DNA of 53,703 nucleotides from Candidatus Magasanikbacteria bacterium RIFOXYC2_FULL_42_28. Its GTDB lineage: Bacteria; Patescibacteriota; Patescibacteriia; Magasanikbacterales; GWA2-37-8. Location: NCBI GenBank assembly GCA_001784435.1, contig MFQZ01000004.1, positions 1-53,703 on the forward strand, given 5' to 3'. The notes below the pieces were generated by a model. The model had not been told where the DNA came from. It worked only from the letters and a program-made list of their open reading frames with translations, and searched no databases. The stretch's first letter is position 1. Each line of letters starts with the position of its first letter. Below are positions 16,668-53,683 of this stretch, one piece after another. The position numbers were made by a program, and so were the translations under genes.

Positions 16668-17071
16668 GTGGAGGCGGCGAGAGTTGAACTCGCGTCCGAT
16701 GAAAACGATTATTACCTTCTACAAGTTTAGCGTTTTTATTTTTTTCGACGAACGGGTACGAAAAGCGCAAAAGTCACGTTCGCTTAGCCGAATTAATTTC
16801 GCTTATTTTGTCCGGCGCCAAAATAAACTACTTTCCGTGGTTTACACCGGATCTGTGCTACGGAATCTTACACAGACGATGCCGACCGGCCCTTAGGCCA
16901 AAGTCGGAGCTAAGTTACAGCTACCGCAGCCGCCAAAGGCGACAGCAATCGCGTTCTTAACTTTTGATAACAAGTTGGCACTTATTATGTTGTTTCGGCA
17001 GATTAAAGAGGCCCGAAACCGTCTCTACTTGCGAGTGACAACCGATTTTACCGTCGATGCCCAACGCCCCC
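16668..17071 (-). ncRNA. ssrA: tmRNA; tag reading frame 16979..16893 (ANLLSKVKNAIAVAFGGCGSCNLAPTLA)
   Basis: 5' GGGGGCG pairs with 3' CGCCTCCA. T-arm gcgag-TTCAACT-ctcgc. Resume context ATAAGT-GCC-AAC. Adjacent to smpB. Confidence 0.93.
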
Positions 17072-17107: not shown

Positions 17108-17548
17108 TCAATTTTTCAATGTTCTCTTAATCTCTCGGTCTAAATCGCGCTTCTTAATTGTTTCACGTTTATCGTATTTTTGCTTGCCTCGTCCCACCGC
17201 GATTTCAACTTTGACAAAGCGATGTTTAGTATACACTGAAAGTGGCACTATTGTCAAGCCCTTTTCTTGGGTTTTTCCTTGTAAATAGCGGATTTCTCTT
17301 TTGTGAAGCAAGAGTCGTCGACTGCGGTCCGGTTCATACTCCAATTGTTTACCGGCCGGTTTGTAAGCGCTCACATGGGCGTTAATCAGATACGCCATAT
17401 CATTATGAAAAGTAACATAGGCCCCCTTTAAAGAAATTTGTCCGTTTTTTACCGATTTCACTTCCGGTCCGGTCAATTCCAAACCCGCCTCCATTTTTTC
17501 GAGGATTTCGTAATCAAATAGTGCTTTTTTGTTCTGGGCCAAAGACAT
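17108..17548 (-). CDS. smpB: SsrA-binding protein
   Basis: NKKALFDYEIL..EAGLELTGPEVKS..RRLLLHKREI..GLTIVPL..GKQKYDKRETIK. Confidence 0.98.
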   Translation of the reverse strand: MSLAQNKKALFDYEILEKMEAGLELTGPEVKSVKNGQISLKGAYVTFHNDMAYLINAHVSAYKPAGKQLEYEPDRSRRLLLHKREIRYLQGKTQEKGLTIVPLSVYTKHRFVKVEIAVGRGKQKYDKRETIKKRDLDREIKRTLKN

Positions 17549-20938: not shown

Positions 20939-23900
20939 ATGCCAGATAGACATGTCCAACAAAGCACGCCCGAAGCGTGGCACAATTTCGATGCTAGTAA
21001 TTTTGCGGTTGGCGATTATGTCACTTATTTTGATCCGGCCGACGAGCGGTGGCATTTTGCTCAATTAGATGCGAATCCACGCCATAATACTCGCAATAAA
21101 ACAGTGGAATTGTATTTGAACGATGAAAACGGCGCCCCCCTCCCTGATTTAGAGTCGCCCTTGCCACCAAAGAGGATTCATCTACAAGAAGGCGGAGTAA
21201 TAATTAGGGGGCAAAGGTATGAGGTAGATCGAAATTTGCCTTATAACGATATTGTAGTTGACGAAAATGGTAACGCCTATGCCACTTTATGGCCGGTTGA
21301 TGCCACCGGCAATACCATCCCTGATTTGGATGAATTACCTAACATGAATTTAAGCATGTTGGAAAAAGTTCAGCGCACCAGCCGTGATGAGGCCGAAGCG
21401 GATACTCGCGTCGCCACTATTCATGAATTGCAGAATCGTACGAACGATGTCGCCACTGTTAAACGCAAAGAATTTGTCAAACGGTTAAATGATCTGGAAA
21501 AAACCATTGAAGATTTAATTAACAAATTGGGATCTTGGAACGAGTGGAACGACCGCGATGATCGGGAGATTAATGCTGTTAAACAAGAGGCCGCCCAGAT
21601 CTATAAGAAAGTCGACGCGGATTTGGAGAAACTGCGCCGTGATTTGGATGCTGTTTTATCTAAACAAGCCGAGGCCGGTAATGAGGCAATTACCGAAGGA
21701 CGCCGAAAAGTCGCAGTTGATTTGGACGGGGCTGTTTCAAAGAGCGCGAGTAAGATTGCCAAGGCGTGGGAAAAATACGATAAAGAGGTGGCCGACTCCA
21801 AGAAAATTTGGGATCAATACGATAAAGACAAAAAAGCGTTTGATGATGCCGCCGCGGCTCCGGCTCCGGCCGCGGGGGGCAAACCACCCCGACCGGCCGC
21901 TCCTAAGAAAGAACCGACGATTCCTACTGTTCCCCGAGAGTCCGTTATCACACCGCCCACGGAACCACGCGATAAAAATTTTATTGCTGCCGGCAGTTAT
22001 AACAGTTTAGCAACTCATAGGCCTCCGCTTAGCGCCGAACACGCCGAGATAATTCGTTTGGTGACTGAGCGGTTTGCGGCTTGGGAGAACGGGGTAGACG
22101 GTACACCTTCTCCCGAAGATCGGACGGAAAAAACCGGTGAGATATTTTTGGCGGTATTAGAAGAGATGAAAAACGCGCCCAAAGTGGAAGCCGAGCCGTT
22201 TGATTTTGCCAAAGAAAAAGAAGAATTGGAAACAGAGGCCAAAGCCCTTTGGGACCGCGCTAGCGACGGCGGCTACGAGCCGGTAATGGATTTAATCAGA
22301 AATAGTCGAGAGGACATTCATAATCTGAAAAAGAAAGATAAAAATGCCCAAAGAAACATGGCGGAAATTTGGAAAAAATTGGGTAATATTGAAATTACTT
22401 TATTTAAAAAAGAGAGAAAAGATAAAACACCGAATGAAAAAGTCAAAGAACGGGATATCGACATCCCCGATACTTTGGTTGGAGAAATTATCCAATCGCG
22501 TCCGCAGGAATTGTTCAATTTAATGTTGGATATGTATCGGAATGAGTATTCGGAAACAGGCTATACTTCCAAAGGTTTGCCAATGGAGGATATTGTTGCT
22601 GATCGTTTGAAAAATTTATTCGCCGCTCCGCCTGCCGGTCCAGCCGGTCAAAGAATTTTGGCAGATTTAGCTCGACACGGTATTCGCGATTGGAATCATT
22701 TTACCTTGCTGTGGGAGCAGAAATACGCTTTGCGCGCTTCCAAAGTATTGCACGAAACTGTTCGTGCCGATATCAACAATGATACTGCTCGCCATATTAG
22801 CGGTTGGGACAAAGCGCGAGCGATGTTACCGCAACTTGCCAAAAGAATTGTCACCACAGCCGTATTAGTTGGCGGTTGTGCCTTGGGCGCTTCGGTGCTG
22901 GTCCCAGCTGGCGCGACTGCTTTAGTTGCCGGGGCAGCAGTTGTTGGTGGTGGTACTGTCGGTGGCGCTGTTCGCGGTGTTTTACAAAAATTTTGGTTTG
23001 GCAGAAAAGTCCAAGAAGATCGAGACAAAAAAACCATGGAGGACTTGACCAACCGCACGCGCGACCAGCGCATTCAAATGTATTTGGCGCAACGGTTCAA
23101 TTTTAATCCCGCTGATTTTGATATTAATAGGAGTTTTAACGGCGGAACAGTTAATGCTGTCACCGGTTTAAACAATGCTGCCGATACGGTTGCGGAACTT
23201 TCCGCTTTGATTGCCGAGGCCACGCGGGTGGCCGGAAAAGAGGCGATTGAGATTGATGATGCCGACCGTCCGCCGGCCGGAATTGTCCTTACCGGCGATG
23301 CTTTGCGAACCTATGTTCGCGCTTTGGCCGCTTGGCGCGCGCGTGAACACGGCCGAGAAATTTTACCGGAAGAAAAGAAAAAATTAGCCGAGACAATAAT
23401 TGGTATAGTAGAGGGTAAAAATGAATTGGCGGAAGGCGACAAAGCCGCAGCCACCGGTTTGACCGGTGAGGGATTGGAAATGTATATCAATGTTTTGAAA
23501 AAAATTCGTCGTGAAGGTGATAGTCCCAATGAAAAACAGAAAAAAGCGTGCGCTTTGGCAATCGCGCGTTTAACGCAAGGCGCCGAAGTAACACAGGTTT
23601 TGGCTGCTGCCGGATCTGACCCAATCGTTATTCGGTTGTTTGATGGCATTGCCCAAGGATTTAGCGGTCAATCAGCGAAAAAATATGGTTGGAAAGGGGT
23701 CGCCGGAACAGCTGCTTTGGGTGGTGGTATGGCCGGAGCGTTTTTACTAAACAGTGGTGCCGCCCGGGCGGTGATGGGCGCGATTGGTGGAGGCGCGAGC
23801 GGTTATCATATGGGTGAGGGTATTCGCAAAGGGCGTGAATATCGAGATGGGCGAACGCGGTTTGATGTTGTGTTTACACAAACACGAACTTTGCAGGATA

Positions 23901-26269
23901 GATTCAATGTGAATCCGGCTACTCTTACCGCGGACGAATTAAATGATTTGGCGGATGACGTTCGCCTGCTGAATCGTTGGCTAAAAAATAATGCCGATAC
24001 GATTGAAGATTCGCGCGCGGTGGATTATATCAATCAGAATCCGGTTACTCGCAAACAATTGGAAAATTTGGTTTACGAGGCCTACAATCGCGGTGTGTTT
24101 GCCCGTTTGGCCTTGGAAAAACTCAACAATTTTACCAATTCACAAGTTTTGGGTAGTTTGGAGAGTGATAATTTGGGTGTAAAAGCCGATGGCAATATTA
24201 GTCAACCGGACAAAGATCGCGAACGACGCCGAATTTTACTTTGGCGTATTGGTTCAACGGCAGTGGGCGCTTTAGCTGGCGCCGGTTTGGCTTGGGGGGC
24301 CGGTGAATTGTTTAGTCGCGCTAAAAATGCCGGCGCGGATGCTTTGCGTGAAAAATTTGGCATTGGCGCGGTGGCGGCCGGAGCGACTGTCCCCGGCAGT
24401 GGCGCTGGCGGGGCGGAACATGTGCCGGGTGGCCGTAGTGGCCACGGTGCTGAAGTAATTAGTCCCGACCCGGCCACAAGTGGTGGCACCGAACATTTAC
24501 CAACCGGCGAAAGACCGCCGGCGATCGCGCATTATGAATTACACGACACCCGGCTCCCGGGAGCTCCCAAATACGAAGGCATGTGGCGCGCGATTGAAAG
24601 TTTCAAGGGCGATTCTCATTTTAAGGGAATGTCCAATCATGATTATACCGATTGGCTTAAAACCGAAATGGAACGGATGGGTTATAAATTTTTAGACGGT
24701 ACCCACAAAATCGCGCACCCGTTTGATGAAAATCCCGGCGATAGGGTAGAATTATTTGTTGATGGTGAAGGTAATCCACACGTGCGCTTTTTGAATGCCG
24801 ATGGTTCGGATAAAGTGGCAATGGACCATTATAATATTGAGACGCGAGTGGGTGGAAAACCAGTGGTGGGAGCGGAAATAGAAACAAAGTTTGCCGGCTT
24901 TAATAAATTGGCGCATGAATTTGCGGACCAATGGAACAAGCCGGGTGCCGATCATGATAATTTAATAAAGAATTTTCCAATTGCTGATTTGGACTCTATT
25001 AAATCCATCAATGTTTACGGAGAGCGCGGAAGTGTAGTGGTTGAATTTACTGACAATACACAGGGGCTTTATCATCCGGTAAAAGCACTGACTGGAAATG
25101 GGTGGATTTTGCAGTCTGGCCGTGAAAATTTACAAGATGTTTTTGAGCAGGGAGTATATGATTACAATTCAAGCAAGTTGCACCCAATAGAAAATGGCGG
25201 TGTGAGATACTATGAATTGCCGGGGAAAGTTATGACTAACGGGAATAGGGCTGGTCAAGATTTTTCGATGTTATATGATATTGGTGGCAATCCAGTTGGT
25301 TATAAATTAGATGGTCTAGTAACAATTGGTCCATATCATTCAGCGATAATGGAAGGCAATAGATGGCCGGTCGGCACACCAGCGCATATTGATGTTCGCG
25401 GTGAAGGATTCAAATGGTTAACAGGCGACGCTATTAATTCAACCGACCAAGCCAGAATTTCCGCCGCGGCCGGCGGGTATGATGTCGTGCCACGATATAC
25501 CGGTGGTGGGGGAGGGACGGGGTTAAGGCCGGAGGCGGGGGCGAGCGGTGGCGGTGTGCCAATAGAAACACATCCACCGGCCAATGATGCCGTGTTGCCG
25601 CCAGAGGCGAGGGGTGCTGTCGCTGGCGCGGCCGTGAGCGAAGCCGATGTTTTTCAAGATTCTTTGCGCCCTGGTAAGGGGGCAACTGCCCAGTCGGCTT
25701 CGGCCGAACAGGTATTGTCGCCATCTGCTGTTGATGTCAGTGTTTCGCGCGGTTGGTATGGTGGTCGTGTTCTTGAGTTGTTTACTAAAGAGTTTAATTC
25801 TGTATCGTCCGAAGCGAACAATCATATCGGCAGTGCGGTAGATTCGTATAATAGACAACTATTGGCCGATGTGAAGGTGCATCCGGAAAATCACCAGCAA
25901 TTTATCTTGGCTAATAAGACCGACAATGAACAAGCGATGCTACAGGCCTATGTCAGTGATCCTTATTTTAGAGCAAATTTTCCAGATGAGTTAAAATTAG
26001 CGTTTGATTATGGCGGTACGGGTATTGAGGAAGCTAAAGTCGTAGGTGGTGATACCGCCAAGGTAATTGGTAATGGGTGTAGCGCATTTACCGCTTCTGT
26101 TGGCGACAGCGGTAAGAAATACTTTCATTATGACCCAGATTATACCTATGCTCGTGCTGTCAGCGGGGATTTAGTCGCCACTAAAGATGGTAACACTTTT
26201 TTGGTAGAATTCAATGGGCTTAATGACGACGGTACCCCCAAAGTTGATTACCAACCATTTAGCAGTTAA
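20939..26269 (+). CDS. Giant 1776-aa protein with coiled-coil, Pro/Ala linker and three Gly/Ala-rich hydrophobic segments
   Basis: Uninterrupted ORF. Hydrophobic GxxxG-rich stretches (IVTTAVLVGG..., GVAGTAALGGG..., IGSTAVGALAGAG...). Confidence 0.9.
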   Translation: MPDRHVQQSTPEAWHNFDASNFAVGDYVTYFDPADERWHFAQLDANPRHNTRNKTVELYLNDENGAPLPDLESPLPPKRIHLQEGGVIIRGQRYEVDRNLPYNDIVVDENGNAYATLWPVDATGNTIPDLDELPNMNLSMLEKVQRTSRDEAEADTRVATIHELQNRTNDVATVKRKEFVKRLNDLEKTIEDLINKLGSWNEWNDRDDREINAVKQEAAQIYKKVDADLEKLRRDLDAVLSKQAEAGNEAITEGRRKVAVDLDGAVSKSASKIAKAWEKYDKEVADSKKIWDQYDKDKKAFDDAAAAPAPAAGGKPPRPAAPKKEPTIPTVPRESVITPPTEPRDKNFIAAGSYNSLATHRPPLSAEHAEIIRLVTERFAAWENGVDGTPSPEDRTEKTGEIFLAVLEEMKNAPKVEAEPFDFAKEKEELETEAKALWDRASDGGYEPVMDLIRNSREDIHNLKKKDKNAQRNMAEIWKKLGNIEITLFKKERKDKTPNEKVKERDIDIPDTLVGEIIQSRPQELFNLMLDMYRNEYSETGYTSKGLPMEDIVADRLKNLFAAPPAGPAGQRILADLARHGIRDWNHFTLLWEQKYALRASKVLHETVRADINNDTARHISGWDKARAMLPQLAKRIVTTAVLVGGCALGASVLVPAGATALVAGAAVVGGGTVGGAVRGVLQKFWFGRKVQEDRDKKTMEDLTNRTRDQRIQMYLAQRFNFNPADFDINRSFNGGTVNAVTGLNNAADTVAELSALIAEATRVAGKEAIEIDDADRPPAGIVLTGDALRTYVRALAAWRAREHGREILPEEKKKLAETIIGIVEGKNELAEGDKAAATGLTGEGLEMYINVLKKIRREGDSPNEKQKKACALAIARLTQGAEVTQVLAAAGSDPIVIRLFDGIAQGFSGQSAKKYGWKGVAGTAALGGGMAGAFLLNSGAARAVMGAIGGGASGYHMGEGIRKGREYRDGRTRFDVVFTQTRTLQDRFNVNPATLTADELNDLADDVRLLNRWLKNNADTIEDSRAVDYINQNPVTRKQLENLVYEAYNRGVFARLALEKLNNFTNSQVLGSLESDNLGVKADGNISQPDKDRERRRILLWRIGSTAVGALAGAGLAWGAGELFSRAKNAGADALREKFGIGAVAAGATVPGSGAGGAEHVPGGRSGHGAEVISPDPATSGGTEHLPTGERPPAIAHYELHDTRLPGAPKYEGMWRAIESFKGDSHFKGMSNHDYTDWLKTEMERMGYKFLDGTHKIAHPFDENPGDRVELFVDGEGNPHVRFLNADGSDKVAMDHYNIETRVGGKPVVGAEIETKFAGFNKLAHEFADQWNKPGADHDNLIKNFPIADLDSIKSINVYGERGSVVVEFTDNTQGLYHPVKALTGNGWILQSGRENLQDVFEQGVYDYNSSKLHPIENGGVRYYELPGKVMTNGNRAGQDFSMLYDIGGNPVGYKLDGLVTIGPYHSAIMEGNRWPVGTPAHIDVRGEGFKWLTGDAINSTDQARISAAAGGYDVVPRYTGGGGGTGLRPEAGASGGGVPIETHPPANDAVLPPEARGAVAGAAVSEADVFQDSLRPGKGATAQSASAEQVLSPSAVDVSVSRGWYGGRVLELFTKEFNSVSSEANNHIGSAVDSYNRQLLADVKVHPENHQQFILANKTDNEQAMLQAYVSDPYFRANFPDELKLAFDYGGTGIEEAKVVGGDTAKVIGNGCSAFTASVGDSGKKYFHYDPDYTYARAVSGDLVATKDGNTFLVEFNGLNDDGTPKVDYQPFSS

Positions 26270-26392: not shown

Positions 26393-26421
26393 TTGACAAG
26401 AAGCCAAAAGTGTGCTATAAT
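26393..26421 (+). promoter_or_regulatory. Perfect sigma70 promoter TTGACA-N17-TATAAT
   Basis: Exact consensus, with extended TG before the -10. Confidence 0.88.
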
Positions 26422-26426
26422 GACCA

Positions 26427-26622
26427 GTCGTGAAAATATAAAAAAGTTTACTTTTATATATTTGAGCGACGCAGGCATTTCAAGCTTTGCTTATAATGCT
26501 TGGTCAGGATATGAAAGGCGGATGCGTTTTGAGAGAGACGCGAATTCGCCCCAATACTGAAAACGACATACAATCTAAATAAATTGTAATAACCTCTCTC
26601 ATATTATATAGGGAGGTTTTTT
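26427..26622 (+). ncRNA. Candidate ~200-nt structured ncRNA of unknown family
   Basis: Lies between a perfect promoter and the terminator aacctctct..agggaggtttttt. Four hairpins by eye. No listed plus-strand ORF. Confidence 0.55.
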
Positions 26623-26972
26623 AATAAAGTATCGCTCTTTACAATATAAGTCACTCAAAAGCAATAGATTGCCGTCTGTTTTACTGGAATACTCAAGTAA
26701 AGCAAACGGCGATCTAATCCGAAGTTGATGATTTCTGATTCTTGGTTCGTCGGGCTCTTCGCAAGAAGAAACCGACATTAAAGGCCTTCTAGGTAGGCCA
26801 GTATAAAGAAACGCGGACAAACATCAGTTTGTTACGCACTTTATCAAACCTAAACCGTCTTACTCTGAATTTTAGAGCGACGGAAGGAACTGATGGAACC
26901 AAGATGAGGATTTCTGATACTGAAGAGGTGGTTGGAACCGTATGTTCGTAGGTGCGTTACATAGGAGGTCAC

Positions 26973-27488
26973 ATGACCCGCACCACTCAGGCCCTGCTCG
27001 GCGTGTTCGGTCTCGTCCTGGTCGGCGCCATCGCGTTCCTGTCCTTCACCCACACCTCCCGCACGGAGGTGGTGGAGGAGGTCCAGATCCTCCGCCAGGA
27101 GGTCCAGGACGCGAAGTACGCAAAGGCGGACGCCATGTCCGACGAGTTCAAGCTCGTCCGCCGGGAGTTCGCCGCGGCCGACGCCGCGCTCTCCGAGCGC
27201 CTGTCCGGTGTGGAGGGCGGCCTCAAGTCCGCGAACATCCGCATCCGGAAGGCCCGCGAGGAGGCCGGCAACGCGTTGGCCAGCGTCATCAACCTCGAGG
27301 GAGCCCTCGCCCGCAAGGCCGACGCCGAGGCGGTCGAGGACGCGCTCGCCGCCAAGGCCGACGTGGCCGCCCTCGCGACGAAGGCCGACAGCGAGGCCGT
27401 CGAGGCCAACTTCGCGCTCAAGGCCGACGTCGACGCGCTCGCCCGCCGCCTGGCCGGCATCGAGCCGCGCGTCAGCGCCCTCGAGTGA
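26973..27488 (+). CDS. Cassette 1: GC-rich membrane-anchored coiled-coil protein, 171 aa
   Basis: AGGAGG at 26963..26968. N-terminal TM, KAD repeats. Sample line 27121-27180 is 42/60 GC. Confidence 0.85.
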   Translation: MTRTTQALLGVFGLVLVGAIAFLSFTHTSRTEVVEEVQILRQEVQDAKYAKADAMSDEFKLVRREFAAADAALSERLSGVEGGLKSANIRIRKAREEAGNALASVINLEGALARKADAEAVEDALAAKADVAALATKADSEAVEANFALKADVDALARRLAGIEPRVSALE

Positions 27489-27492
27489 TCGA

Positions 27493-27728
27493 AGCCCCAC
27501 ACCATGTGTGGGCAAGCCCCCGCGTCGGGGCAGTGCGCGCAATGTGCACGAAACGACGCCGCGGCAATCCGCCACACGGATCCTTTACCTGGATCACAGC
27601 GGACCGCGCAGTAGGGGGAGGAGAGAATGAGACTATCGAGAGTTTCGGCAAAACTCCTCTCCCTTCCCCTACATCTGTTCATTAAATTGTTAGTGCGCAG
27701 ATGAAGTGGAAGTATTTGTTCTTTAAAA
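27493..27728 (+). ncRNA. Cassette 1 structured 3' element ending in boxA-like tgttctttaaaa
   Basis: Several short hairpins, long stem 27611..27672, last hairpin 27673..27702, purine linker, motif at 27717..27728. Confidence 0.55.
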
Positions 27729-27765
27729 TTTAAGGAGGCGTGTATTCGCCTCTATTTATTTTTAA

Positions 27766-27852
27766 CTGTCATCCCGAGCGTAGCCGAGGGATCCCTTAGA
27801 GTTGGTGTTGTTATCAACTTTAATAAATCCTTTGTTGCGCCCGGAATGACAG
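27766..27852. repeat. TGTCAT-family palindromic element between cassettes 1 and 2
   Basis: ctgtcatcccgagcgtagccgagggatc ... ccggaatgacag. Same family as 15812, 39272, 48722. Confidence 0.8.
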
Positions 27853-27939
27853 TGCAGTTTTTGCTGTTTTCCTTGTTCGTGCTCGCAACCCACCCGATAA
27901 TCGGGGCCCGACAGCGTCGGGTTTTTTGGAGGAAGTCTC

Positions 27940-28578
27940 ATGACTCGTGCACAGTTCTGGTCGTTTTTGGTGGCGGTGGTGGTCGTGGGCATCGTGGCAG
28001 TGCTGGGGTTCGGTCTCGGCTTCACCAAGGCCGACGAGGACGAGGTGGTCGCCGCCCTGGCGACCAAGGCGGAGGCCACCCGCATGGCGGCCGAGTTCGT
28101 CGCCGTGCGGGGAGAGTTCGCCGCGGGTGACGCCACTCTCGCTGCTCGCCTCACCGGCGTGGAGGGGCGGGTCTCCACCGTGGAGTCCCGCCTCACCGGC
28201 GTGGAGGGTGGCCTGAAGGCGGCCACTCGGCGGCTCTCCGAGCTGCCGCAGAAGGCCGATCTCGACGCCCTCGCCGCCCGTCTCGGTTCGGCCGAGGGTA
28301 CGCTCGCCTCGGCCCCCTGGTCGACTGGCCTGGCCACCTTGGCCGGTCGGGTCGCGACCCTCGAGACGCCCGCGCCCCCGATCGTCGCCCCCGTGTCGCC
28401 CACCTGCACTGGCTGGTCCCTCGGCGTCCGCGGCGCGCCCATCTCCCCGGTGGGTTGCTACGCGACCTGCGTTGCGGCGAAAGCTGTGGCGCAGGGTGGT
28501 AGCCGGTTCAGCGGCTCGGTCTACGGGCGGACATCCGCCCAGTGGATTGAGTCGAGCGAATCCTGCCCGGCCGAGTAG
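27940..28578 (+). CDS. Cassette 2: GC-rich paralog of cassette 1 with a Cys-containing C-terminal domain, 212 aa
   Basis: GGAGG SD. N-terminal TM. EFxxVRxEFAAxDAxLxxRLxGVEGGLK shared with cassette 1. Internal 42-bp duplication. Confidence 0.85.
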
Positions 28579-28587
28579 TTCTTTCAC

Positions 28588-28798
28588 ACCCCACCGCACG
28601 ATCTCCCGATCGTAGCGGTTGGCGGCACACAGCGCGTCTTTCCTGTAAGCGCTGGATCGGTCAGACGGTTTGTCTCCCCGTGAGACGAGTCGGCTTCCGT
28701 TGGAAAGGGTCCCGAGTTTGTTGGCAACAACACTCTCGGGCACTCTGGCATGTTGATTTGTTAATCAAGTCAACAGTTAGAGTAGGTGTTCTTTACAA
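28588..28798 (+). ncRNA. Cassette 2 structured 3' element (173 bp shared with cassette 3)
   Basis: 28588..28760 matches 29602..29774 with 2 mismatches, then gtcaacagttaga and tgttctttacaa. Confidence 0.7.
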
Positions 28799-28933
28799 AA
28801 AATTAAATTTTCCGGCGTGAACTTTTCATTGTTTAGAAAAATAATGAAGAGCTCACGCCGGATCCGATCGAGGCATATTGTGGACGATCCACAATGTTGC
28901 TTTAGTTGGGATTATCTGGTAGAGGAGGTTCCT

Positions 28934-29596
28934 ATGGGGCGCAAACCCCCGACCTCGGCGCGCGTCATCGCGACGTTCGCCATCCTCTGCGCCACGGCCT
29001 CCCCGGCCGCGGCGCAATCTGAAACCGGTGACGCGGCGCCCGCCGCTGTCACCCCTGATCCGGCCGAGTTGCCGGTGCCCCCAACCTCACCCGACCCGGG
29101 TGGCTGGAAGTTGGTGCTCGCCCCCGAGTTCAGCGTCGGGGTGGCGCACTCGGAGGCCGGCTTCGACGCCGACTCCGAGGATGCCTACCTCGGCACCGTC
29201 TCGGCCACCTTGCTCCTGCGCCACTCGGCCCTGTCCGGTGGTGAGCCCTCATCTTTCCTGTATGGGCTTCGCGGCTTGTACGGGTTGGGTGGTGGCTCGT
29301 CGGGTGCACGCCAGTTGTGGGGCGTCGCTGGCCTTCTGGGTTGGCGCGCGTCTCGCGACCGCGTCGTCGGGGGCATTGGTCTGTCCTACATCCAGTATGA
29401 CAAGGCAGGCGGGGATTGGGTCCGCCGCGGTGGCGGCGTTCCGCTCTGGATCGAGATCAAATTGGGGGATAGCACCTCCAATTGGTTCCTCGGTCTGGAA
29501 GGGACGCCCGCCATCCTCTGGCGGGACCTGGACGATGCCCCTGCGTTCGCCTTCGGGCTGAACGCGGGGGTGCTCTACCACATCCCCCTCTACTAG
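28934..29596 (+). CDS. Cassette 3: GC-rich secreted protein resembling a small outer-membrane beta-barrel, 220 aa
   Basis: AGGAGG at 28923..28928. Signal peptide (ASPAAA-Q), Pro-rich linker, Gly/aromatic-rich amphipathic strands, C-terminal GLNAGVLYHIPLY. Confidence 0.75.
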   Translation: MGRKPPTSARVIATFAILCATASPAAAQSETGDAAPAAVTPDPAELPVPPTSPDPGGWKLVLAPEFSVGVAHSEAGFDADSEDAYLGTVSATLLLRHSALSGGEPSSFLYGLRGLYGLGGGSSGARQLWGVAGLLGWRASRDRVVGGIGLSYIQYDKAGGDWVRRGGGVPLWIEIKLGDSTSNWFLGLEGTPAILWRDLDDAPAFAFGLNAGVLYHIPLY

Positions 29597-29601
29597 TCTT
29601 T

Positions 29602-29817
29602 ACCCCACCGCACGATCTCCCGATCGTAGCGGTTGGCGGCACACAGCGCGCCTTTCCTGTAAGCGCTGGATCGGTCAGACGGTTTGTCTCCCCGTGAGAC
29701 GAGTCGGCTTCCGATGGAAAGGGTCCCGAGTTTGTTGGCAACAACACTCTCGGGCACTCTGGCATGTTGATTTGACATACGAAGCATCGAGTCAACAGTT
29801 AGATTGGTTCTTTAAAA
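29602..29817 (+). ncRNA. Cassette 3 structured 3' element (near-identical to cassette 2 element)
   Basis: 173-bp direct repeat, different loop in the final hairpin, ggttctttaaaa at 29806..29817. Confidence 0.7.
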
Positions 29818-29979
29818 TTTAGAAAAATAAATTAAAATATAAATGATACTGCGCGCGACTGGCGCGGAAAGAGAAATTATTATTTGATTTTTCTTTCTGC
29901 GTCAGTTTGTAGTTCGGTGCTCCGAGGATGGTCCTCGTAGGTGCCGGCGCAGCAAATCGCATAGCAAGGAGAAAAAACT

Positions 29980-31530
29980 ATGCGTACCACCAACATCGCG
30001 GTGGTTCTCTGTCTCGGACTCTGGACCGCTTCGTGCGGCACCAAGGCCGAGGCCCCCGGGCTCGACGTGCCCGCGGACGACGATAACACGGCGGATGACG
30101 ACACCGCCGACAACGACGACCTCGTCGTTTGCCTCGAGTGCAACGACGATGACCCGTGCACCACGGACTGGTGCCGGGTGTCACCCCCCCCTGGGGTCGA
30201 CTCGTGTGTCCACATGAACGGGGACGCCGGCGTCACCTGCGACGACGGCAACGGTTGCACCGAGACCGACGTGTGCGACGGGGTGGGCACCTGCGTTGGC
30301 ACGCCCCTGGCGTGCGACGACGGCGATGCCTGCACCGACGACGCGTGCACCGACGGCGTGTGCAACAACACGTCCGTCACCTGCGACGACGGCGATGCGT
30401 GTACCGCGGAGTTCTGCGGGACCATCGCCGGCGGTACCGGTGGGTGCTTCTCGGTTCCCGTGGCTGGCGAAGGCTGCGAGGAGGAGTCCAACTGTACCGT
30501 CGCCAGCGATGGCGTCGGGAATTTCTCCCTGACCTGCCCGGACGGCTCCGTGGCAGAGTGGGGTGACGGCGCGGATGGCGCGCCGGGAATGGACGGAGCC
30601 GATGGGGTCGATGGGACCCCGGGTACCGACGGCGTCGATGGCAGCGACGGCACGGACGGAACCGATGGCGCGCCGGGAGCTGACGGGCTCGACGGTGCGG
30701 ACGGGGCGGATGGCGCCCCGGGTGATTCGTGCAGCGTGACTGTGCTTCCGATGGGGTGCATGGTCATTGTGTGCGGGGATGACGATCCTTCCCCGCCCCT
30801 GTGCCCGGACGTGTCCGAGGCCGGATGCACCACCACGCAGGACGGCGACTGTGCTGTCATCAACTGTGTGGGTGGATCTACGTCGCGGGTGTGCCCCACC
30901 ACGACGGCTCCTGCCTGTGTCACCGACGGCGACTGCGCCGACGGCAATGCCTGCAACGGCCACGAATCGTGTGTGGCCGGGGAGTGTGTGAATGGGGTCG
31001 TGGTGTCGTGTCTGGCCGCGGACGCGTGCCATCTCGTCGGTGAGTGTGATCCGGCGAATGGCCTGTGCTCCTCGCCTTCCGCCCCGACGGGGACGGTGTG
31101 CGACGACGGCAACGCCGGCACCACCGGCGACCAGTGCGACGGCGCTGGCCTGTGTGTGGGGGTGGCCACGCCCCCCAGCCCCGATGCCGATGGCGACGGG
31201 TACAGCATCGCGGCCGGCGATTGCGACGATGACCCCACCGTGGGTCCGTCGCCGGCCCGATGGTGCCGGGGGAGCGACACGAAGAAGTTCCTCGTGATCG
31301 ACTTCCTCGGAAGTGTGGCCCCGGCCTGCCCAGCCGGAAGTGTCGAAGTCGCGCTGACCGACGGGTCCGCGCTCAACAACCCCGGTATCCACGATACCAC
31401 CGGGGATGGCTTCGACAACAACTGCAACGGCATCATCGACGAGGGCGGCGGGGACCAGTGCACCTGGTCGCACATGTCGTCCGGTCCCGCGCTGGACTAT
31501 CTCGTTCGATGCCCGTGGATGAACCCGTAG
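29980..31530 (+). CDS. Cassette 4: GC-rich Cys-rich lipoprotein with CDDGxACT repeats, collagen-like Gly-X-Y tract and metal-binding-type motif, 516 aa
   Basis: AAGGAG SD, lipobox WTASC, repeated CDDGNxCT, GADGAPGMDG... tract, DADGDGY..GDCDD and DGFDNNCNGIIDEG. Confidence 0.88.
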   Translation: MRTTNIAVVLCLGLWTASCGTKAEAPGLDVPADDDNTADDDTADNDDLVVCLECNDDDPCTTDWCRVSPPPGVDSCVHMNGDAGVTCDDGNGCTETDVCDGVGTCVGTPLACDDGDACTDDACTDGVCNNTSVTCDDGDACTAEFCGTIAGGTGGCFSVPVAGEGCEEESNCTVASDGVGNFSLTCPDGSVAEWGDGADGAPGMDGADGVDGTPGTDGVDGSDGTDGTDGAPGADGLDGADGADGAPGDSCSVTVLPMGCMVIVCGDDDPSPPLCPDVSEAGCTTTQDGDCAVINCVGGSTSRVCPTTTAPACVTDGDCADGNACNGHESCVAGECVNGVVVSCLAADACHLVGECDPANGLCSSPSAPTGTVCDDGNAGTTGDQCDGAGLCVGVATPPSPDADGDGYSIAAGDCDDDPTVGPSPARWCRGSDTKKFLVIDFLGSVAPACPAGSVEVALTDGSALNNPGIHDTTGDGFDNNCNGIIDEGGGDQCTWSHMSSGPALDYLVRCPWMNP

Positions 31531-31790
31531 CGGGTATCCAACGCAGTGAGCTGGTGAACATAACACCGGCAATATAGCAAAAAAATGTCGGGAGATACCG
31601 TAATTCTCCTAGTCCGCCCAGTAAAGGAGGGGTGGAAATGAAACGGAACACAATGCGTCCGTGGCGCGCAAGCGTCTGGATGTTTGACAGCAGGCGTCGG
31701 TGGGGAGGTCTCATACTTCCCTGCCGACGCCCGCCCGATTGAGAACATAAAGATTTGTGTTTTCAAACAGGGTGAAGCGATTTAAAGTTT
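31531..31790 (+). ncRNA. Cassette 4 structured 3' element
   Basis: Short hairpins, long stem 31693..31731, last hairpin 31739..31766, purine linker, degenerate gcgatttaaa. Confidence 0.5.
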
Positions 31791-31962: not shown

Positions 31963-32316
31963 CTATGCGACCTGCAATTGTTTTACTTGTCTTTCTAAAA
32001 AGTCCACTCGTTTGCGTAACTCCAGAATATCTTTGGCCGCGGCATCTTCATCGCCAATAATGCGTTGTTCCAATTGATCCAACTGGCGATTAATTAATTT
32101 TAACTCAGAGTGAATATACGCAAGCGCGCTGGCCATTTCAGATTTAAATTCCGACAGTTCGCCTTTGACTGACTTTATTTCCGCGCTTAGTTCTCCTTTC
32201 AATTCATCAAACCGCCTGTCCACGCTTTTAGCGAATAATTCCATTGCCTCTAAAATTTCGTTATTACTCACCTCTTTTTTGGCTGTCATATTGTTTGACA
32301 TTAATTTTTTAAGCAA
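31963..32316 (-). CDS. Small coiled-coil hypothetical protein (start uncertain, 32316/32301/32289)
   Basis: Heptad-repeat character. AT-rich, genome-like codon usage. Confidence 0.75.
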   Translation of the reverse strand: MLKKLMSNNMTAKKEVSNNEILEAMELFAKSVDRRFDELKGELSAEIKSVKGELSEFKSEMASALAYIHSELKLINRQLDQLEQRIIGDEDAAAKDILELRKRVDFLERQVKQLQVA

Positions 32317-32392
32317 ATTTATTATATCATTGTTTTAAAATAATTGTCAAACGCAATGGATTTTTTAATAGTAATATGGTAAAATATATCTT

Positions 32393-51724: not shown

Positions 51725-51799
51725 GGCCTCATCGTCTAACGGCTAGGACAGAGCCTTCTCAAGGCTTAAATCGGGGTTCGATTCCCCGTGGGGCTACCA
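51725..51799 (+). tRNA. tRNA-Glu (CUC)
   Basis: ggcctca/tggggct acceptor stem, anticodon arm gagcc-ttCTCaa-ggctt, T-arm cgggg-ttcgatt-ccccg, CCA encoded. Confidence 0.95.
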
Positions 51800-53321
51800 C
51801 GTTAAAACAATTCGGGTTTTTGACAAAATTTTCACGGGCAACGCACAGCGTCGCCCAAGGGTTTTTCGGCGAATTGTCGCCGTTTTTATATTCCCCCCAC
51901 ACCAGTTTACCGCCCGCGAGGCGGAGGTTCGAGCCAAAGATTTCTTTGGCAACAACCTTTTTGGCAAAAAGGTTGTTCTCCCGCGCGATTTGAGGCAGAT
52001 TTTCTGTCTCTTTTATCCATTGTCGCATCGGTTCGAGCCAACTATTTCGTTTCTGTTCGGCGGTCAATATTTTCTCCTCCAGCGACTTTTTCTCGCTCAT
52101 AAATTTCGCCTTCTTTTCCAGATATATTTCGCGCTCTATATCTTGCTCTAAATAACTATCTAACAGTCGCTGTAATTTGGTTTTAATATTTTCTATCGCA
52201 CTTTTGTTCTCTTGAACAAAAGCAACTGACGACTGCGCATCGCTATTTTTGTCTTTTTCTAAAATCGCTGTTAATTGTGTCGCCCAATCCGCGCTCAAAG
52301 AAAATTTTTGTAATAATAAGGATGTCTGCTCGTCTAAACTTTCTTGGCGAATACAGGGTTCGTCACATTTTATTGTTTTATTTTTCTTTGTGCAATGGTA
52401 ATAAATATAGTCATGAGTATTACCATTTTTCTGACGTTTAACCCTGTATTCGCCAGTTATTCCCATTCCGCACGTTCCACATTTCAACATTCCACAAAAC
52501 GCTTGCGCCTTGTTTTTAGTTTTGTGATGCGGTCGTCCTTTTTGTTTTAAAATATTTTGAACTATATCAAAAATCTTCTTTGAAATAATTGGCTCATGTT
52601 TTCCTTCGTATAATTCTTTGTTGTATTTAAAAAATCCGACATAAAACGGATTGGAAAGCGTAAACGAAACTTTATCTCGTTTCCAATTTTTTTCGTTCTT
52701 TGTTTTAATACCTTGCTCTGCCAAAAAGTTAGATACATCTTCCAGTCGTGAATTGCCCTGCGCATAAAATTCAAAAGTTTTGCGTAAAATCTCAGCTCTT
52801 CTTTTATCCACCGCCACATTTTTTGTGCGTGGGTCGTTGAAATATTCAAAGGGCGCAAGGCCGGGATATTCTCCACGTCTAACTTTCTGATGCATTCCGC
52901 GCTTGACGTTTTCGCTTAAACTATCAACATAATATTTGCTTTGTCCAAAAGCAATATTAAGCATAAATTTTCCTTGCGGGGTTGGCTCAAACCAAAATTG
53001 CGGAAATTTTAACGCTAAAATATTTCCGCAATCCAAAAGATAAATTATTTTTCCGCCGTCAACAGAATTGCGTGCCAAACGATCTGGGTGCCAACTGATT
53101 ATACCGTTTGCTTCTCCGCGTTCTATTCTTTCCAGCATTGAATTAAAAATCGGTCTGCCCGGGATTTTAGCTGACTGCTTTTCTATTAACTCCTCAATAA
53201 TATCAAATTTTTCGTTTCTCGCGAACGCGCGCAACTCGGTAATTTGCGCCTCAATACTTAAAACTTGTTTATCTTCCACATCCGTGGATTTACGGGCATA
53301 CAAAAAGAATTTTTGTGCCAT
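51759..53321 (-). CDS. Large serine recombinase (resolvase domain, recombinase domain, Zn ribbon, coiled coil); C-terminus reads antisense into tRNA-Glu
   Basis: FFLYARKST (catalytic Ser), WHPDRLARN, NPFYVG, HEPII, CGTCG..YYHC. Confidence 0.95.
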   Translation of the reverse strand: MAQKFFLYARKSTDVEDKQVLSIEAQITELRAFARNEKFDIIEELIEKQSAKIPGRPIFNSMLERIERGEANGIISWHPDRLARNSVDGGKIIYLLDCGNILALKFPQFWFEPTPQGKFMLNIAFGQSKYYVDSLSENVKRGMHQKVRRGEYPGLAPFEYFNDPRTKNVAVDKRRAEILRKTFEFYAQGNSRLEDVSNFLAEQGIKTKNEKNWKRDKVSFTLSNPFYVGFFKYNKELYEGKHEPIISKKIFDIVQNILKQKGRPHHKTKNKAQAFCGMLKCGTCGMGITGEYRVKRQKNGNTHDYIYYHCTKKNKTIKCDEPCIRQESLDEQTSLLLQKFSLSADWATQLTAILEKDKNSDAQSSVAFVQENKSAIENIKTKLQRLLDSYLEQDIEREIYLEKKAKFMSEKKSLEEKILTAEQKRNSWLEPMRQWIKETENLPQIARENNLFAKKVVAKEIFGSNLRLAGGKLVWGEYKNGDNSPKNPWATLCVARENFVKNPNCFNVVAPRGIEPRFKP

Positions 53322-53683
53322 ATATTTGAAATTCAAAATGCCGTCCTGGTGCACCCAACCCAAAGAACTTAAAAAGTCAAAGGATTGTCCAAGACGGCAA
53401 TTAAAAAAGTCCTTTGGTTAAGTTGGGTGCGAGGTTATTATATCACAAATCTCAAAAACAATACATCGGTTTGGATAAAACAAATTTTGTTTCAAAATTT
53501 GAAAATCGCGCGGGAGCCGAACCTCCACCTCGCGAGCGGTAAATTGGTGTGGCCTGCCTTCGCTAATGCTTCGGCGAGTCAACGGGGGGAATTAAAAAAC
53601 GGCGACGGTTGGCCAAAAAACCCATGGGCGATGCTGTGCGTCGCCCGTGAAAATTTTGTCCAAAACCCGAATTGTTTTAACGT
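51799..53683. mobile_element. Serine-recombinase element at the tRNA-Glu 3' end, bracketed by imperfect inverted repeats
   Basis: 51799..51931 is the diverged reverse complement of 53518..53683, which carries a 31-bp palindromic insert at 53553..53583. Confidence 0.6.
53340..53429 (-). promoter_or_regulatory. Structured 5' leader of the recombinase gene with crossing stems
   Basis: 53340..53349 pairs with 53389..53398, and 53351..53359 pairs with 53421..53429. TATAAT just upstream on the minus strand. Confidence 0.55.

Follow-up and report, generated by a model that had tools for sequence, protein, structure and literature searches.

A putative small outer-membrane-protein-like gene in a GC-rich island of a Candidatus Magasanikbacteria genome

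This study concerns a stretch of 53,703 nt, hereafter called the window, which comprises positions 1 to 53,703 of contig MFQZ01000004.1 of Candidatus Magasanikbacteria bacterium RIFOXYC2_FULL_42_28 (assembly GCA_001784435.1), and in particular an orphan gene within it, designated gene C, whose product is predicted to be secreted. The GC profile of the window revealed an island at about 26.9-31.7 kb that carries four genes, designated A to D in their order, with GC contents of 68-72%; gene C is the third of them. Each unit of the island consists of an AT-rich leader with a Shine-Dalgarno (SD) site, a high-GC open reading frame (ORF) and a strongly folded 3' region. The remainder of the window has a GC content of about 42% and is an ordinary small-genome chromosome. 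The coordinates of the features are collected in Table 1.

Gene C is a genuine protein-coding gene. In the frame beginning at 28934 the GC contents of the first, second and third codon positions (GC1/2/3) are 0.67/0.57/0.82, and it is only in this frame that the locus displays a high-GC coding pattern free of stop codons. A longer ORF could start from a GTG at 28817; the extension is AT-rich and lacks a coding signature. The frame-specific GC3, the SD site, the signal peptide and the non-random strand pattern described below all show that the gene is real.

The first-pass annotation of this DNA had described the product as a protein with a Sec signal, a Pro-rich linker, roughly eight strands and an aromatic-rich last strand, and this description proved accurate on the translation. 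The signal peptide has a positively charged n-region, a hydrophobic core and an AXA site, and no lipobox was found in its translated sequence. The C-terminal domain is composed of 18% Gly, 14.5% Leu, 12% Phe, Trp and Tyr, and 17% Asp, Glu, Lys and Arg, with no Cys, which matches the composition of OmpX, the transmembrane (TM) domain of OmpA, OmpW and PagP. Eight candidate strands of 12-17 residues each were delineated by eye at approximately residues 58-72, 84-97, 107-119, 127-139, 144-156, 168-179, 184-198 and 204-220, and the connections between them measure 9, 4 and 4 residues on one side and 5-11 residues on the other. The non-hydrophobic faces of the strands are rich in Gly, Ser and Thr rather than charged residues, unlike the surface of a soluble protein. 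The last strand, AFAFGLNAGVLYHIPLY, is rich in aromatic residues, and the sequence NAGVLYHI near the end of the protein resembles a beta-signal, fitting the pattern polar-x-G-x-x-aromatic-x-hydrophobic/aromatic.

The strand pattern was quantified by a dyad statistic, which counts the residues in runs of at least five alternate positions occupied by A, V, L, I, F, W, Y, M, G or C, provided that the run is made up mostly of strong hydrophobics and is more hydrophobic than the intervening face. In the domain of C this statistic recognised six strict segments covering 42% of the sequence, the other two strands being assigned by eye, and none of 2000 composition-preserving shuffles reached this coverage (z 3.6, and 3.7 on a repeat run). 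Mature OmpX, the OmpA TM domain, OmpW and PagP, taken from the MG1655 record, gave coverages of 0.22-0.39 with z values of 1.7-4.1, and the score of C is thus at the top of the range of small outer-membrane proteins (OMPs). The 28 control sequences that are not small OMPs had coverages of 0-0.20 and z values from -1.4 to 2.3. Twelve of these (11 proteins of the window and the soluble C-terminal domain of OmpA) reached 0-0.20 with z of at most 2.3, and the other 16, exported E. coli proteins that are not small barrels, reached 0-0.15 with z of at most 1.8. The latter set includes the lipocalin Blc, which is soluble and eight-stranded, six Fim proteins, CsgA, CsgB, CsgC, CsgE and CsgF, AmpC and OpgG, and so covers fimbrial subunits, curli and chaperones; it also contains FimD, a large usher, and CsgG, a channel, which reside in the outer membrane but have other architectures. 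Windowed hydrophobic-moment and lag-2 autocorrelation tests gave no significant signal for C (z 0.2-1.1), and these tests are uninformative because genuine OmpX and PagP failed them too.

Homology searches returned nothing related to C. A word-indexed search of 5.8 billion clusters and a full phmmer pass over 1.84 billion representatives each found only C itself, tblastn against plasmids gave no match, and comparison with Pfam (E ≤ 10), NCBIfam, PHROGs and PDB sequences yielded nothing meaningful. The first-pass annotation had looked to the taxonomy of best hits and to dN/dS among copies in genomes of the Candidate Phyla Radiation (CPR) for evidence on origin and selection, but neither protein search returned another copy, which leaves nothing to compare by dN/dS. 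Since there is no homolog, no alignment could be built, and AlphaFold2 run without one gave a mean predicted local distance difference test score (pLDDT) of 39.5 on the complete protein and of 42.3 on the mature domain. At low confidence, each of the two models shows an all-beta meander of antiparallel strands of 12-16 residues. A Foldseek search of the PDB with either model found no match at E ≤ 0.001, a result that is meaningless because the confidence of the models was low.

Judged from its sequence, C looks, and probably works, like a small OMP. The small eight-stranded OMPs (OmpX, the N-terminal domain of OmpA, OmpW and PagP; Pfam OMP_b-brl-type) have, like C, a Sec signal, a domain of about 150-190 aa, no cysteine, high contents of Gly and aromatic residues and an aromatic C-terminal residue. 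In both cases eight strands of alternating hydrophobicity (in C predicted from sequence) are joined by short turns at one end and by somewhat longer loops at the opposite end, and the dyad statistics fall within the same range. Several points set C apart from these proteins or weigh against this assignment. C has no detectable sequence similarity to small OMPs and matches no OMP family or solved structure. A 29-residue Pro-rich spacer at the N-terminus is unusual among these proteins, and the beta-signal-like motif of C lies three residues from the end, being followed by PLY, so that the protein ends with Tyr and not Phe. The models, with the low pLDDT values given above, are not closed barrels and leave the fold unconfirmed, and the gene is encoded in a phylum thought to be monoderm. 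The dyad statistic is ad hoc, was devised after C had been inspected and was calibrated on few proteins; it is supportive rather than decisive. Of the beta-barrel-like character proposed in the first-pass annotation, the OMP-like strand pattern therefore stands, exceeding that of the shuffles, but a barrel fold was not confirmed by AlphaFold or Foldseek, and the further statement that the protein could only mature in a diderm cell depends on that fold. Small barrels such as OmpA, OmpX and PagP are also known to fold into lipid in vitro when BAM (the beta-barrel assembly machinery) is absent.

The composition of gene C, with 68.5% GC and a GC3 of 82%, contrasts with that of the flanking host genes, which have about 42% GC and a GC3 of 40-48%. 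Across genes A to D the GC3 is 82-96%, and the products of all four are predicted from sequence to be exported or membrane-anchored. Genes A and B are paralogs (34% identity, E 5e-10). Gene B is an orphan with no relatives and no phage match. Gene D matches the Pfam family Collagen (3e-8), and its relatives are only cysteine-rich repeat and MYXO-CTERM proteins of Myxococcota, with 30-55% identity over part of the length. They come from Polyangiaceae, Byssovorax, Minicystis and metagenome-assembled genomes (MAGs) named 'Deltaproteobacteria', on contigs of 64-69% GC from which homologs of A, B and C are absent. The very recent capture proposed in the first-pass annotation agrees with these data: no compositional amelioration is visible, and recent acquisition from a high-GC diderm is therefore well supported. 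A Myxococcota-like donor is suggested by the neighbouring gene D only, and no donor can be named for C itself since it has no homolog.

The island lies inside an envelope locus. Genes for a 1776-aa surface protein and for Wzz border it to one side, and to the other side are those for a 461-aa membrane protein, GT4 and GHL15/FG-GAP. The 1776-aa protein (20939-26269) is lineage-specific, has TM segments and belongs to no Pfam family, and no GTDB species representative has a relative of the 461-aa protein. Two GC spikes, near 24.3 and 25.5 kb, were considered as further foreign inserts and rejected, as they correspond to Gly/Ala/Pro-rich linkers of the 1776-aa protein. Neither the island nor its flanks contain a mobility gene or flanking direct repeats at the borders, no tRNA is found there, and the island is not located in a recognisable prophage. 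The sole recombinase of the window is a large serine recombinase at 51759-53363, 20 kb from the island and beside a tRNA-Glu gene.

Table 1. Positions of the island, its genes and the associated features in the window
Feature	Position	Strand	Remarks
Compositional island	26872..31780	+	four same-strand units of about 0.9-2 kb; from the GC profile
Gene A	26973..27488	+	N-terminal TM anchor and coiled coil; 72% GC, GC3 96%
Gene B	27940..28578	+	TM anchor, coiled coil and Cys-containing C-terminal domain; GC3 86%
173-nt structured repeat, copy 1	28588..28760	+	starts 9 nt past the stop codon of B
AT-rich leader of C	28777..28933	+	junction motif TTAGAGTAGGTGTTCTTTAC; hairpins at 28811-28862 (24-nt arms) and 28875-28897
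SD site GAGGAGG	28922..28928	+	5 nt 5' of the ATG of gene C; from sequence
Gene C	28934..29596	+	ATG at 28934, TAG at 29594-29596; 220 aa; orphan, predicted secreted
Putative Sec signal peptide of C, residues 1-27	28934..29014	+	MGRKPPTSARVIATFAILCATASPAAA followed by Q; predicted signal peptidase I site between AAA and Q, signal ending at 29014
Pro-rich linker of C, residues 28-56	29015..29101	+	8 Pro in 29 residues
Gly/aromatic beta-rich domain of C, residues 56-220	29099..29593	+	165 aa; about 8 dyad-repeat strands
173-nt structured repeat, copy 2	29602..29774	+	starts 5 nt past the stop codon of C
Gene D	29980..31530	+	lipoprotein-like signal, Cys-rich CxDDGxxCT repeats, collagen-like GXY run; GC3 82%
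Misplaced public gene calls	26942-27685, 27820-28743, 30181-31473	+, -, -	on the identical ENA contig

The genes of the window include ligA, PPDK, dsbB, a UvrD-like helicase gene, infC-rpmI-rplT, tmRNA, smpB and Wzz, together with murE/F-type ligases, mraY, a penicillin-binding protein gene and murB. LigA is 60-73% identical to proteins from Candidatus Magasanikbacteria and other Patescibacteria MAGs, which supports the assignment of the host to CPR, as the first-pass annotation had implied. Patescibacteria have been proposed to be without an outer membrane (PMC12102498). The bamA and lpt genes, whose absence was part of the earlier argument, were not seen, and no Omp85, POTRA, Lpt or Lpx domain was found within the 53.7-kb window, which cannot speak for the genome.

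These observations suggest the following scenario, to which we give a little more than an even chance as a whole. A high-GC donor, probably a Myxococcota-type diderm, would have passed gene C horizontally to the chromosome of a Magasanikbacteria (CPR) cell, as part of an island whose four units each encode an exported or membrane-anchored protein. Its product would be exported by Sec and cleaved after AAA at residue 27, and the mature protein would consist of a Pro-rich spacer and a 165-aa domain with the hallmarks of an outer-membrane barrel of about eight strands, in the size class of OmpX, the N-terminal domain of OmpA, OmpW and PagP. In the donor, BAM would insert it into the outer membrane. 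The CPR recipient, which is expected to lack an outer membrane, probably cannot assemble C into its own membrane, and C would most likely be a recent passenger there, with any role being at the surface; both the closed barrel and this fate of the protein are inferred. That C is confined to this lineage speaks against a settled function maintained by selection. Its AT-rich leader with a good SD site suggests a gene arranged to be expressed by the CPR cell, which is awkward for a useless passenger, and the same can be said of the good SD sites of the other units and of the extracytoplasmic nature of all four predicted products.

Acquisition of a foreign island is already a known kind of event, and C would be at most a new orphan member resembling small OMPs. 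Phage 'morons' are self-contained promoter-ORF-terminator units of deviant GC content. The island described here resembles both horizontally transferred islands and morons in its contrast of about 26 GC points, its orphan cargo and its location in a variable envelope locus, and also in that each unit is self-contained, bringing a leader, an SD site and a structured 3' end with it. It differs from them in having no border tRNA, integrase or direct repeats and in not being part of a recognisable prophage. What is unusual is the CPR recipient, the organisation of the units into leader, ORF and structured tail, and the absence of recognisable capture machinery.

The leaders of A to D are 100-180 nt long, AT-rich at their 5' end, and contain hairpins and a good SD site. 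The 3' regions of the ORFs, about 200-240 nt in length, fold as plus-strand RNA beyond the level of dinucleotide shuffles, with z values of -5.9 after A, -5.1 after C and -7.25 after D. For the 234-nt stretch 29597-29830 after C, which holds the second repeat copy, the value of -5.1 on the plus strand compares with -1.8 on the minus strand. The two copies of the 173-nt repeat are 99% identical. The repeat belongs to no Rfam family, its covariance model detects only these two copies in the window, the 3' regions of A and D being unrelated to it, and exact-pattern scans of metagenome and viral contigs found no copy. The elements end in GTTAGTG after A, GTTAGAG after B and GTTAGAT after C. Only the last fits the GTTRRRY core, the other two fitting it imperfectly. 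A common motif, GTTCTTTA(A/C)AAA..TTTA, lies 3' of the element ends after A, B and C, recurring at 27718, about 28787 and 29807.

This arrangement raises the possibility that a site-specific capture system, integron-like or of another kind, moved the four units as cassettes, C being simply one of those captured, with the 173-nt repeat and the TTAGAG/GTTCTTTAAAATTTA junctions acting as recombination sites. Such a system would be compatible with the transfer of a small-barrel-like gene proposed above, and we regard it as possible but doubtful. The units have one orientation and sizes of about 0.92, 0.98, 1.02 and 2 kb, they contain orphan ORFs, the repeat begins only 5-9 nt past the stop codons of B and C, the GTTAGAT and GTTAGAG ends recall the integron core, the junction motif recurs at three places, and C has direct repeats on either side, as insertion of a circle by the Campbell mechanism would leave. 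However, no integron integrase or other recombinase occurs within 20 kb, and no tyrosine recombinase was found among the window ORFs of at least 120 aa. The elements form several local hairpins instead of an R''/R' hairpin and contain no RYYYAAC inverse core, their folding as RNA depends on the strand, the repeat shares no homology with the 3' regions of A and D, and the exact-pattern scans found no copy of it elsewhere. An attC-like single hairpin was rejected for the repeat, as the bottom strand folds as DNA into local hairpins only. Because of the multi-hairpin elements and the lack of an inverse core and of a tyrosine recombinase, the island was not filed as an integron.

Compared with clusters of attC sites lacking integron integrases (CALIN), the island likewise has units of about 1 kb in a single orientation, orphan ORFs with a repeated structured element directly 3' of them, and a GTTRRRY-like motif where the element ends. 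Unlike CALIN, it has multi-hairpin elements of about 200 nt with strand-specific, RNA-type stability, lacks R''/R' pairing and IntI, and carries AT-rich leaders of 100-180 nt, which are atypical of cassettes. The repeat was also examined as an IS200/IS605-type palindrome-associated transposable element, given TTAC at its left end, TCAA near its right end and subterminal hairpins. This was set aside because both copies abut stop codons and the sequencing depth gives two copies only.

Two further observations concern the junctions. The sequence TTAACTGTCATCCCGAGCGTAGCCGAGGGATCCC at 27762-27796, which occurs once in the window, at the junction of A and B, is a high-copy node in the source metagenome, with a k-mer depth of 55-97 and several unrelated branches (runs X1, X2 and X6), and seems to be a short hairpin repeat common to many genomes. 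In another contig, positions 29795-29818 are joined directly to 32355-32375, between flanks unlike those of the window, at a depth of 35 in X1 and 27 in X2. The depth of the organism studied here is only about 2 in X2. This contig may belong to another organism that has the junction motif and lacks D and the 108-aa ORF described below, or may be a short-anchor artefact.

A cell-surface role of C, whether or not it forms a barrel, is a live rival. In one form of it, C would be a beta-rich protein of the CPR cell surface, either secreted or bound to the wall and not a membrane barrel, acting for instance in host adhesion together with A, B and D, and its resemblance to OMPs would be only compositional; we consider this unlikely. 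It would suit the export or anchoring of all four island products, the position of the island in an envelope locus with Wzz, a giant surface protein, GT4 and GHL15/FG-GAP genes, the separate SD site in an AT-rich leader for each gene, and the unconfirmed fold. Against it, soluble and fibre-forming exported beta proteins, including the lipocalin, have a dyad coverage of 0-0.15 compared with 0.42 for C, the Gly/Ser/Thr-rich faces of C are unlike a soluble surface, and no wall-anchoring motif was found in C.

It is also conceivable, at a distinctly lower probability, that C is an effector exported by a CPR epibiont into the outer membrane of a diderm host, where it would serve as a pore or an anchor. 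This is the idea of host-directed expression put forward in the first-pass annotation. Insertion could be spontaneous or proceed through the host BAM. Such a function would be in keeping with the intactness of the gene, its good SD site and its signal peptide, given a cell in which no outer membrane is expected, and also with the OMP-like pattern of C and the resemblance of D to proteins of a diderm phylum. Host-directed expression is, however, unsupported. The SD site in the AT-rich leader is of the ordinary kind, and RNA runs gave no sign of expression, none of them containing gene C or this stretch. Furthermore, no delivery system was seen in the window, and C is conserved in no CPR genome but this one, a point against an established function. 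A combined interpretation is improbable too. It holds that a CPR epibiont maintains captured, GC-rich genes for surface proteins as an array ready for expression, and that this array was built by a capture mechanism distinct from integrons and from known transposons. Each gene would be equipped with an AT-rich leader and a large, strand-specific structured 3' RNA module, and one of them would encode a self-inserting barrel exported into the outer membrane of a diderm host.

The island is not an assembly artefact. A 51.7-kb ENA contig (k141) is 100% identical to the window across the 20.6 kb compared, and identity also holds for JGI and Logan contigs (1.3 and 0.9 kb), whose breaks fall precisely at the repeat, as they should. 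Among the Logan contigs of run X1, one leads from host DNA into A and another from the repeat of C through D into host DNA, and pieces of the island are present in four runs, X1 and three others at low depth. The depth of the collapsed repeat in X1 (30.9) approximates the sum of those of B (12.3) and C (17.8), which indicates exactly two repeat copies. The k-mer depth of B and C in this run (12-18) is below that of the flanks (24-27); the dip tracks GC content and may also come from population heterogeneity. A chimeric assembly or a chance ORF in GC-rich DNA is thus highly improbable: GC-rich DNA does yield long ORFs in many frames, public gene callers went astray on A, B and D, and the depth is lowered at B and C, but independent assemblies agree on the sequence and its joins with host DNA, eight chimeric joins would be needed for four GC alternations, and the frame-specific GC3, SD site, signal peptide and strand pattern are those of a real gene.

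If both the barrel fold and the expression of C are true, a monoderm-type CPR cell carries and exports a protein of outer-membrane type, which would bear on the contact of episymbionts with diderm hosts and on the action of small barrels in the absence of BAM in the producer. Whatever the fold, a tiny CPR genome can acquire unameliorated genes of about 70% GC into an envelope locus, apparently from a Myxococcota-like donor, and the tidy units of leader, ORF and tail hint at an unrecognised capture route. The practical weight is modest, as C is an orphan gene seen in one lineage. Judged by codon-position GC, the public calls on the identical ENA contig are in the wrong frame for A and on the wrong strand for B and D, so that protein databases may lack or misrepresent the products of islands of this kind.

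Several other features were noted in the window. Upstream of the island, at 26393-26421, there is a perfect sigma-70 promoter (TTGACA, a 17-nt spacer and TATAAT, with a TG extension), and the following approximately 200 nt fold strongly (z -5.7) and end in an intrinsic terminator at about 26595-26622; the region 26393-26625, which has no Rfam match, is a candidate small RNA. At the downstream border, a 108-aa coiled-coil ORF is located at 31963-32289 on the minus strand, under the control of another perfect sigma-70 promoter (32350-32321, also minus strand). The serine recombinase mentioned above (minus strand) comprises 534 aa with Resolvase, Recombinase and Zn_ribbon_recom domains, overlaps the 3' end of the tRNA-Glu gene in the region 51725-53363, and is probably the edge of an integrated element running past the window.

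Many MAGs entitled 'uncultured Gammaproteobacteria bacterium' (loci L004, L008, L010 and others) have a LigA closest to that of Magasanikbacteria, and these titles appear to be mislabels from bulk submission. Two tandem leucine-rich-repeat genes, at 107-1105 and 1156-2154, encode 332-aa products that are 100% identical, which reflects either a very recent duplication or collapse or expansion in the assembly. The tmRNA gene at 16668-17071 adjoins smpB (17108-17548), and its predicted tag, ANLLSKVKNAIAVAFGGCGSCNLAPTLA, is unusually long and contains Cys.

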